Positions 8,854 through 9,319 of a stretch of 16,487 nt of DNA are shown here, one piece after another. The stretch is from Octopus sinensis (taxonomy: Eukaryota): contig NW_021825221.1 of assembly GCF_006345805.1 (NCBI RefSeq), forward strand, positions 1-16,487, given 5' to 3'. Made by a program: the position numbers and the translations under genes. Position 1 is the stretch's first letter; every line of letters begins with the position of its first letter. A model generated the notes under the pieces. That model was not told the DNA's origin, made no database searches, and saw only the letters and a list, made by a program, of their open reading frames with translations.

Positions 8854-9038
8854 ATAATAATAATAATAAATATTAGGGAATAAATCCAAATTACACAGGG
8901 AAAAAACAGATTTAGGATTAAATCCCATTTTATAGTAAAATATTATGAAATATTATTAGAGACAAAACCACTATTTTGCAAAACAAACAAGGAAAGACTT
9001 AATCAATACAAAAATTTTAATAATAGTCAAAAAAACCG

Positions 9039-9081
9039 CCACTACAATTGTTTCTTGTCTTGATCGACAATCTTCAGGTGG
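9039..9081 (-). ncRNA. Minimal type I hammerhead ribozyme
   Basis: Exact reverse complement of 9143-9185. Confidence 0.88.
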
Positions 9082-9142
9082 ACTTCCAATAAGTCAGTTT
9101 CAATTATGAAGTCTTCATAATTTGAAACTGACTTATGGAAGT

Positions 9143-9185
9143 CCACCTGAAGATTGTCGATCAAGACAAGAAACAATTGTAGTGG
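9143..9185 (+). ncRNA. Minimal type I hammerhead ribozyme
   Basis: CCAC-CUGAAGA-UUGUC(gaucaa)GACAA-GAAA-CAAUUG-UA|GUGG; predicted GUA cleavage after 9181; palindromic helix III. Confidence 0.88.
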
Positions 9186-9279
9186 CGGTTTTTTTGACTA
9201 TTTATTAAAATTTTATGTATTGATTAAGTCTTTCCTTGTTGTTTTGCAAAATAGTGGTTTTGTCTCTAATAATATTTCA

Positions 9280-9319
<40 letters not shown>

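Follow-up and report, generated by a model that had tools for sequence, protein, structure and literature searches.

A palindrome of 348 nt in the genome of Octopus sinensis carries an identical hammerhead ribozyme motif in each of its arms, and we interpret it, with moderate confidence, as a young, dead-end insertion of a Penelope-like element (PLE) into a (TA)n microsatellite, composed of two 5′-truncated copies of the 3′ end (the pLTR) joined head to head and lacking a coding body. It is present as a single copy within the window, by which we mean the whole stretch of 16,487 nucleotides that was analysed (assembly GCF_006345805.1, contig NW_021825221.1, positions 1 to 16,487 of the forward strand). 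An initial annotation of this DNA had proposed a PLE origin for the palindrome and suggested that it could be an extreme truncation product, a proposal that is supported by the match to the published anatomy of PLE insertions. We infer that the parent was probably a member of the Hydra clade, and its family is probably one that has not been described so far.

The element and its immediate flanks are organized as follows.

8819..8867, no strand assigned: left (TA)n run followed by an (ATA)n run, adjoining the 3′ end of the tailed copy and likely to be the target microsatellite
8868..8938, minus strand: one-sided 3′ tail of 71 nt, ending in AATATT beside the microsatellite
8939..9111, minus strand: left arm, 173 nt, a putative 5′-truncated pLTR copy running on into the tail
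9039..9081, minus strand: type-I hammerhead motif, 43 nt, with C3 at 9077 and predicted cleavage after the A at 9043
9112..9112, no strand assigned: symmetry centre and putative head-to-head junction, 1 nt
9113..9286, plus strand: right arm, 174 nt, a putative inverted and tail-less pLTR copy, ending in AATATT
9143..9185, plus strand: identical 43-nt type-I hammerhead motif, with C3 at 9147 and predicted cleavage after the A at 9181
9287..9316, no strand assigned: right (TA)n run, likely to be the remaining half of the microsatellite that was targeted

The two arms are arranged around a central T, as the initial annotation had recognized in describing a palindrome of about 348 bp with a 1-nt centre, and the palindrome alignment has a score of 317, compared with a maximum of 42 among 1000 dinucleotide shuffles. 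Alignment of the left and right arms gives 171 identities, no substitutions and five indels of 1 nt each; the earlier description of the palindrome as perfect thus holds with regard to substitutions but not with regard to length. Four of the five indels fall within short A runs (2-3 nt); the fifth is a lone T within an A run. We infer that these differences are long-read consensus noise, and for this reason the arms may be truly identical.

The mirror symmetry ends exactly where the tail begins. The tail continues the left arm only and has no mirror image on the right side, in agreement with the earlier observation that one arm carries an extra 3′ extension, and both ends of the element terminate at AATATT adjoining TA/ATT runs. 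The (TA)n flanks noted previously correspond to TA/ATA runs, which occupy 8819-8867 and 9287-9316; any target-site duplication is indistinguishable from this (TA)n microsatellite, which counts against the PLE-insertion reading. A hairpin within the tail is weak (z -1.3) and hairpins within the arms have a z of -0.20, neither value being significant. There is no long frame in any of the six frames of the element. A parent or coding body of its family was not found, a point against the PLE-insertion reading: the element has no DNA relative in the window, and its longest frame, of 40 codons, matched no homologue in a search of 22-70 aa proteins.

The two hammerhead motifs are on opposite strands and oriented outward from the palindrome centre, their centres being about 100 nt and their cores 70 nt apart. 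The claim that the palindrome contains mirror-image 43-nt hammerheads with a palindromic helix III is borne out by the identity of the motifs at 9143-9185 (+) and 9081-9039 (-). Each is composed of a 4-bp helix I, a CUGAAGA core, a 5-bp helix II, GAA, the sequence ACAAUUGU and the cleavage triplet GUA, with ACAAUUGU providing a self-complementary helix III of 8 nt. The type-I minimal hammerhead consensus CUGANGA...GAAA...UH, together with helices I and II, is present in both arms. The G10.1-C11.1 pair that is typical of canonical hammerheads (PMC4209133) is absent from the motif, and there is a U-A pair at that position instead.

We searched the window with a motif descriptor in which helices I and II are at least 3 bp (looser version) or at least 4 bp (strict version), and obtained seven and six matches respectively. 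The strict descriptor had no match in any of 300 block-shuffled windows and a match in only one of 20000 shuffles of the arm, a control that is somewhat generous because the descriptor was composed after the motif had been seen. The helix pairings are preserved with different letters across the hammerhead families in the window, and two copies of a sister family discussed below, at 1540 and 15970, differ from one another at both bases of two pairs in helix II. A further motif, at 1637, misses the descriptor solely because its helix III has an additional A. All seven of the hammerhead-bearing ends that were measured in the window terminate at a TA or ATT run, located 120-251 nt past C3.

In an Rfam scan that gave 102 matches at E<=1, none was to a hammerhead family, which counts against the PLE-insertion reading; the other motifs of the window were equally undetected. 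Four Rfam matches fall over the element, three of them to miRNA-hairpin models and one to a snoRNA model; all are under their gathering scores, and we rejected them as sub-threshold and generic for long hairpins. Elsewhere in the window there is a minimal hammerhead at 1188-1325 (-), with C3 at 1321 and a 4-nt ACGU helix III, in a single-arm element that ends at (TA)n 134 nt downstream. Degenerate hammerhead-like cores are present at 5462 (+), ~10660 (+) and 12024 (-), all of which fail the strict descriptor; the core at ~10660 has a (TA)n end 146 nt downstream.

For the 43-mer monomer the hammerhead conformation has a predicted probability of 0.018, and the monomer fold is unremarkable (z -0.48), which counts against the PLE-insertion reading. 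The 43-mer homodimer is predicted to adopt, as its minimum free energy structure, a dimeric hammerhead whose intermolecular helix III has 8 bp (-22.0 kcal/mol). In all four of the longer contexts of a single arm, the minimum-energy dimer was something other than the full hammerhead, a further point against the same reading. Cleavage by the motif is predicted to require either dimer formation or the help of protein, and because the two motifs are on opposite strands they are unable to partner each other in cis. A transcript of the whole element is predicted to fold into one hairpin of approximately -268 kcal/mol, within which the outer helix II pair has a probability of 5e-20, and any transcript crossing the centre is predicted to keep both ribozymes buried. 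Because of the dimer-only folding and the masking in read-through transcripts that these models predict, the ribozymes here are probably silent passengers. The DNA hairpin of the element has a predicted energy of -183 kcal/mol; on these predicted energies, cruciform extrusion and siRNA production from the palindrome, both raised initially, are plausible.

The window also contains a sister family, represented by two adjacent units (the 1420 and 1920 units, 1421-2385) that can be aligned with 461 identities, no substitutions and seven single-base indels. Because the units are adjacent and without substitution we regard them as one duplication and not as independent insertions; either they were duplicated in tandem very recently, or the assembly has left a repeat uncollapsed. 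The initial annotation considered the palindrome to share its architecture with these units, which is correct in outline, but the details differ: both units have a 44-nt spacer and three substitutions between their arms, the tail is about 130 nt long, and the helix II region is about 54 nt. Outside the core the sequences are unrelated, as had been stated; the best local alignment between the palindrome element and the 1920 unit scores 20, the shuffle mean is 20.0, and this score was reached by 515 of 1000 shuffles. We therefore rejected homology outside the core, and attribute a common 10-nt pyrimidine stretch to chance. The features that the element and the sister family do have in common are an 8-nt AC...GT palindromic helix III and a one-sided tail ending in AATATT at a TA run.

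A diverged and tail-less relative of the 1420 arm is located at ~15850-15997 (-), with 117 of 146 aligned positions identical and an intact hammerhead with C3 at 15970. Beyond it, after some 135 nt that are unassigned, is a broken PLE reverse transcriptase (RT) remnant at ~16132-16380 (+), and the region from 15850 to 16400 is likely an inverted pLTR preceding a truncated body. The junction spacing differs among the three inverted structures of the window, being 1 nt in the palindrome and 44 nt in the 1420/1920 units, with an RT remnant following the arm at 15850. The only link to an RT is through the sister family and spans this unassigned stretch, and this too counts against the PLE-insertion reading of the palindrome.

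A HMMER protein search with the RT remnant at 16165 yielded 24 matches at E<=0.001; four of these were looked up, and the two that are named are proteins of Octopus sinensis and O. bimaculoides, with 69% and 56% identity. The same proteins match a second, frameshifted PLE RT remnant at 3790-4325 (-). The Hydra clade is characterized by an RT with a DKT motif and by a C-terminal GIY-YIG without CCHH. The motifs of the RT remnants resemble, as judged by eye only, Hydra-clade consensus sequences (PMC8557442 File S7). Pfam reported no families for three RT fragments, and no RT or GIY-YIG family in any of the 21 matches, out of the 24, that were scanned; this and the by-eye nature of the clade assignment count against the PLE-insertion reading. 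Word-index protein searches with the two RT remnants gave 6 and 103 candidates, none of them at E<=0.001.

Two Octopus RefSeq proteins, myb-like protein I and GATA zinc finger domain-containing protein 4-like (P0001 and P0004), are apparent gene models on PLE RT remnants. The window also contains broken remnants at ~13520-15510 (-) and 6026-6334 (-), which we take to resemble an RTE-type LINE and a LINE restriction-like endonuclease, respectively, and others at 10903-11170 (+) and 12127-12414 (-) that presumably resemble Tc1/mariner-type transposases. Dispersed short repeats are present in several copies at ~2830-3200, 4370-4670, 9560-9790, 10420-10590 and 6585-7334, and we take these to be octopus SINE-type repeats. 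An exact 28-nt scan of a prokaryotic genome collection gave no matches, which is uninformative for an animal repeat, and a bacterial promoter scan of the element, which is not applicable here, was at chance level.

In the standard scheme of PLE insertion an inverted 5′-truncated copy is present and there is a tail at one end only (PMC8557442; also PMC8969392). The palindrome works like a PLE pLTR and stands up to the structural tests of an inverted-pLTR insertion: it has a head-to-head inverted 5′-truncated copy, a tail on one arm only, a hammerhead inside the pLTR, and ends bounded by microsatellite. In an anole PLE the protein cuts both strands with a preference for ATT, and reverse transcription starts at two sites, the interval between them being the tail; protein is needed for cleavage by the hammerhead of this element, which is itself dispensable for insertion in vitro (PMC11167929). 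In the pathway that we propose, the RT-endonuclease of an autonomous copy elsewhere would nick the TA/ATT microsatellite, and cDNA would be primed at the two RT start sites of the family, 71 nt apart, to give one tailed and one tail-less copy. Both copies would halt upstream of the ribozyme, at a distance of about 30 nt. They would be joined at this point through the annealing of a short native palindrome or else through fold-back self-priming, and each arm would contain a hammerhead simply by virtue of its location in the pLTR.

Head-to-head inverted pLTRs with junction palindromes, including one overlap of 15 bp, have been interpreted as products of self-priming, and native palindromes of 18 bp and 38 bp have been reported at pLTR 5′ ends (PMC3846280). 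Because such native palindromes occur, independent insertions could end with the same centre, and a centre shared between copies is therefore weakened as a test of amplification, and is not decisive. The presence of several unrelated PLE families within 16 kb is unsurprising, since O. vulgaris has 190 PLE families, of which 31 were recently active (PMC13282606).

We have considered several other accounts of the structure. One is that it is a solo remnant, in which an insertion formerly composed of an inverted pLTR followed by a pLTR, an ORF, a further pLTR and a tail has lost its body by recombination between the direct pLTRs. A deletion between direct repeats should yield exactly the anatomy observed, and the three-pLTR layout is typical of the elements described in PMC3846280, but the arms have no substitutions, leaving little time for a second event, and frequent 5′ truncation gives the layout in one step; we think this history unlikely. 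The presence of a body-less layout in two unrelated families within 16 kb raises the question as to whether such palindromes are an amplifying non-autonomous family, protein-free units of head-to-head pLTRs plus tail that are transcribed whole and copied in trans by the RT of a Hydra-clade PLE. In one rotifer case pLTR sequences alone are enough for integration in trans (PMC3846280), and retrozymes have been argued to be non-autonomous PLE derivatives (10.64898/2026.07.22.740005). Nonetheless, the window has just one copy of the palindrome, the 1420 and 1920 units do not represent independent insertions, the three inverted structures do not have their junctions in the same position, and the hairpin predicted for the read-through transcript would bury both motifs, so that we find amplification as a unit quite improbable.

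An artefact of sequencing or assembly could also give rise to a palindrome, either because a fold-back chimeric read mirrored one copy of the pLTR or because of a false inverted duplication of larger extent with its centre at 9112. The arms differ by 1-nt indels only, which is the pattern of long-read noise, and the same is true of the 1420 and 1920 units. Moreover, the element is bracketed by an outer inverted repeat (8298-8388 and 9390-9472) with 83 aligned nucleotides, no substitutions and one 8-nt length difference, whose score of 143 exceeds the maximum of 96 in 1000 shuffles; we count this repeat against the PLE-insertion reading. However, it is a compound microsatellite, is off-centre from 9112, and was not seen to continue into unique DNA. 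The mirror, for its part, leaves out the tail as well as unique DNA (8389-8818), and a mirror boundary of the same kind is found in the unrelated 1420/1920 family, where arm substitutions are present in both units. We consider an artefact unlikely. Least likely of all is a hairpin locus used by the host as a source of siRNA or miRNA-like products, or a MITE-like DNA element with incidental hammerhead-like motifs. The great predicted stability of the hairpin as RNA and as DNA and the matches to Rfam miRNA models fit this account, but those matches are far under the gathering scores and are expected from any long hairpin, and the sequence analysed gives no sign of transcription or conservation. 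The complete hammerhead motif, with its single match in 20000 shuffles, and the one-sided tail also argue against it; these are not MITE features.

If the palindrome is a body-less PLE insertion, as we favor, the roughly 190 PLE families already known in this group of genomes gain a further, undescribed end whose palindromic helix III is 8 nt long. Counting centres, spacers and tails over many such copies could distinguish twin priming from fold-back self-priming, and palindromes of this kind could be mis-annotated as MITEs or miRNA hairpins. Were it true that whole palindromes amplify as units, they would constitute a new kind of non-autonomous retroelement, an inverted counterpart of the non-LTR retrozymes, and would have arisen at least twice in octopus.

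Among known systems, the Hydra-clade PLEs (Hydra-1_Obim, Penelope-13_HM; PMC8557442 Files S1, S2 and S7) resemble the element in their (TA)n targeting and in having a hammerhead near the 3′ end, as well as in the U after the core, cleavage after A, the AC...GT helix III and their occurrence in Octopus. In the Hydra-clade table of this source, U follows the CUGANGA core in 15 of 25 families, cleavage is after A in 11, and helix III is of the AC...GT form without exception; insertion is into (TA)n in 26 of 27 Hydra families, one family is from O. bimaculoides, and one has a hammerhead on both strands by way of an inverted copy (PMC8557442). The helix III in this Penelope-like clade is 9-10 nt in all 25 families, whereas that of the element is 8 nt and perfectly self-complementary, a difference in length that counts against our reading, and as judged by eye the element differs in sequence from Hydra-1_Obim (PMC8557442). 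Three of four exact 11-mers had no match in the PMC8557442 supplement, where line breaks can hide matches, and the fourth occurs once, in a non-octopus Hydra consensus. None of three motifs was matched in the approximately 5 kb of supplementary text of PMC13282606, and the terms 'palindrom', 'ribozyme' and 'hairpin' do not occur in its main text. A count of 235 hammerheads has been given for the giant squid, with no further analysis in that account (PMC6962438). The Naiad clade was rejected as a source; cephalopod Naiads target (TA)n too but are reported to be without canonical hammerheads (PMC8557442).

Non-LTR retrozymes (10.64898/2026.07.22.740005; PMC7229834) are likewise small and non-coding, have a type-I hammerhead, and are argued to be derived from pLTRs. 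They are, however, arrayed in tandem, head to tail, and have their ribozymes on a single strand, and we rejected a retrozyme identity for the element, in which the arrangement is head to head, the motifs are on opposite strands, and no tandem array extends over the element.

Parallels are found in Schistosoma, where dual minimal hammerheads occur about 100-700 bp apart on opposite strands and most motifs have been ascribed to truncated PLEs (PMC4209133). The S. mansoni pairs are like the element in being type-I minimal hammerheads that lie close together on opposite strands among truncated PLEs, and in their short helix I, palindromic helix III and predicted requirement for a dimer; the spacings in the element, about 100 nt between motif centres and 70 nt between cores, are at or below the lower end of their range (PMC4209133), which counts against the PLE-insertion reading. 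These pairs are the subject of one sentence in the Results of PMC4209133, in which arms, tail and junction are not described. As a class, body-less two-arm PLE palindromes were not found described in the literature searched, a coverage that mostly excludes subscription journals and Repbase reports and so does not establish their absence.

There is also a likeness in layout to the inverted-pLTR structures of PLEs that bear an endonuclease (Pen2a_Av and relatives, PMC3846280; PMC8557442 Fig. 2), which have head-to-head pLTRs, a palindromic junction, a tail on one arm, arms of about 170-220 bp and an AT-rich target. The published examples consulted differ in retaining an ORF or captured DNA between the pLTRs (PMC3846280), where the element has no body, and the 71-nt tail is longer than the published PLE tail of 30-40 bp (PMC8557442), a difference that counts against the PLE-insertion reading. 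The head-to-head arrangement of PLE ends is thus already in print, in the form of inverted pLTRs, one-sided tails, palindromic junctions and close pairs of hammerheads on opposite strands, and the modest value of the octopus palindrome is that it shows the unexplained inverted junction of PLEs in a minimal form.
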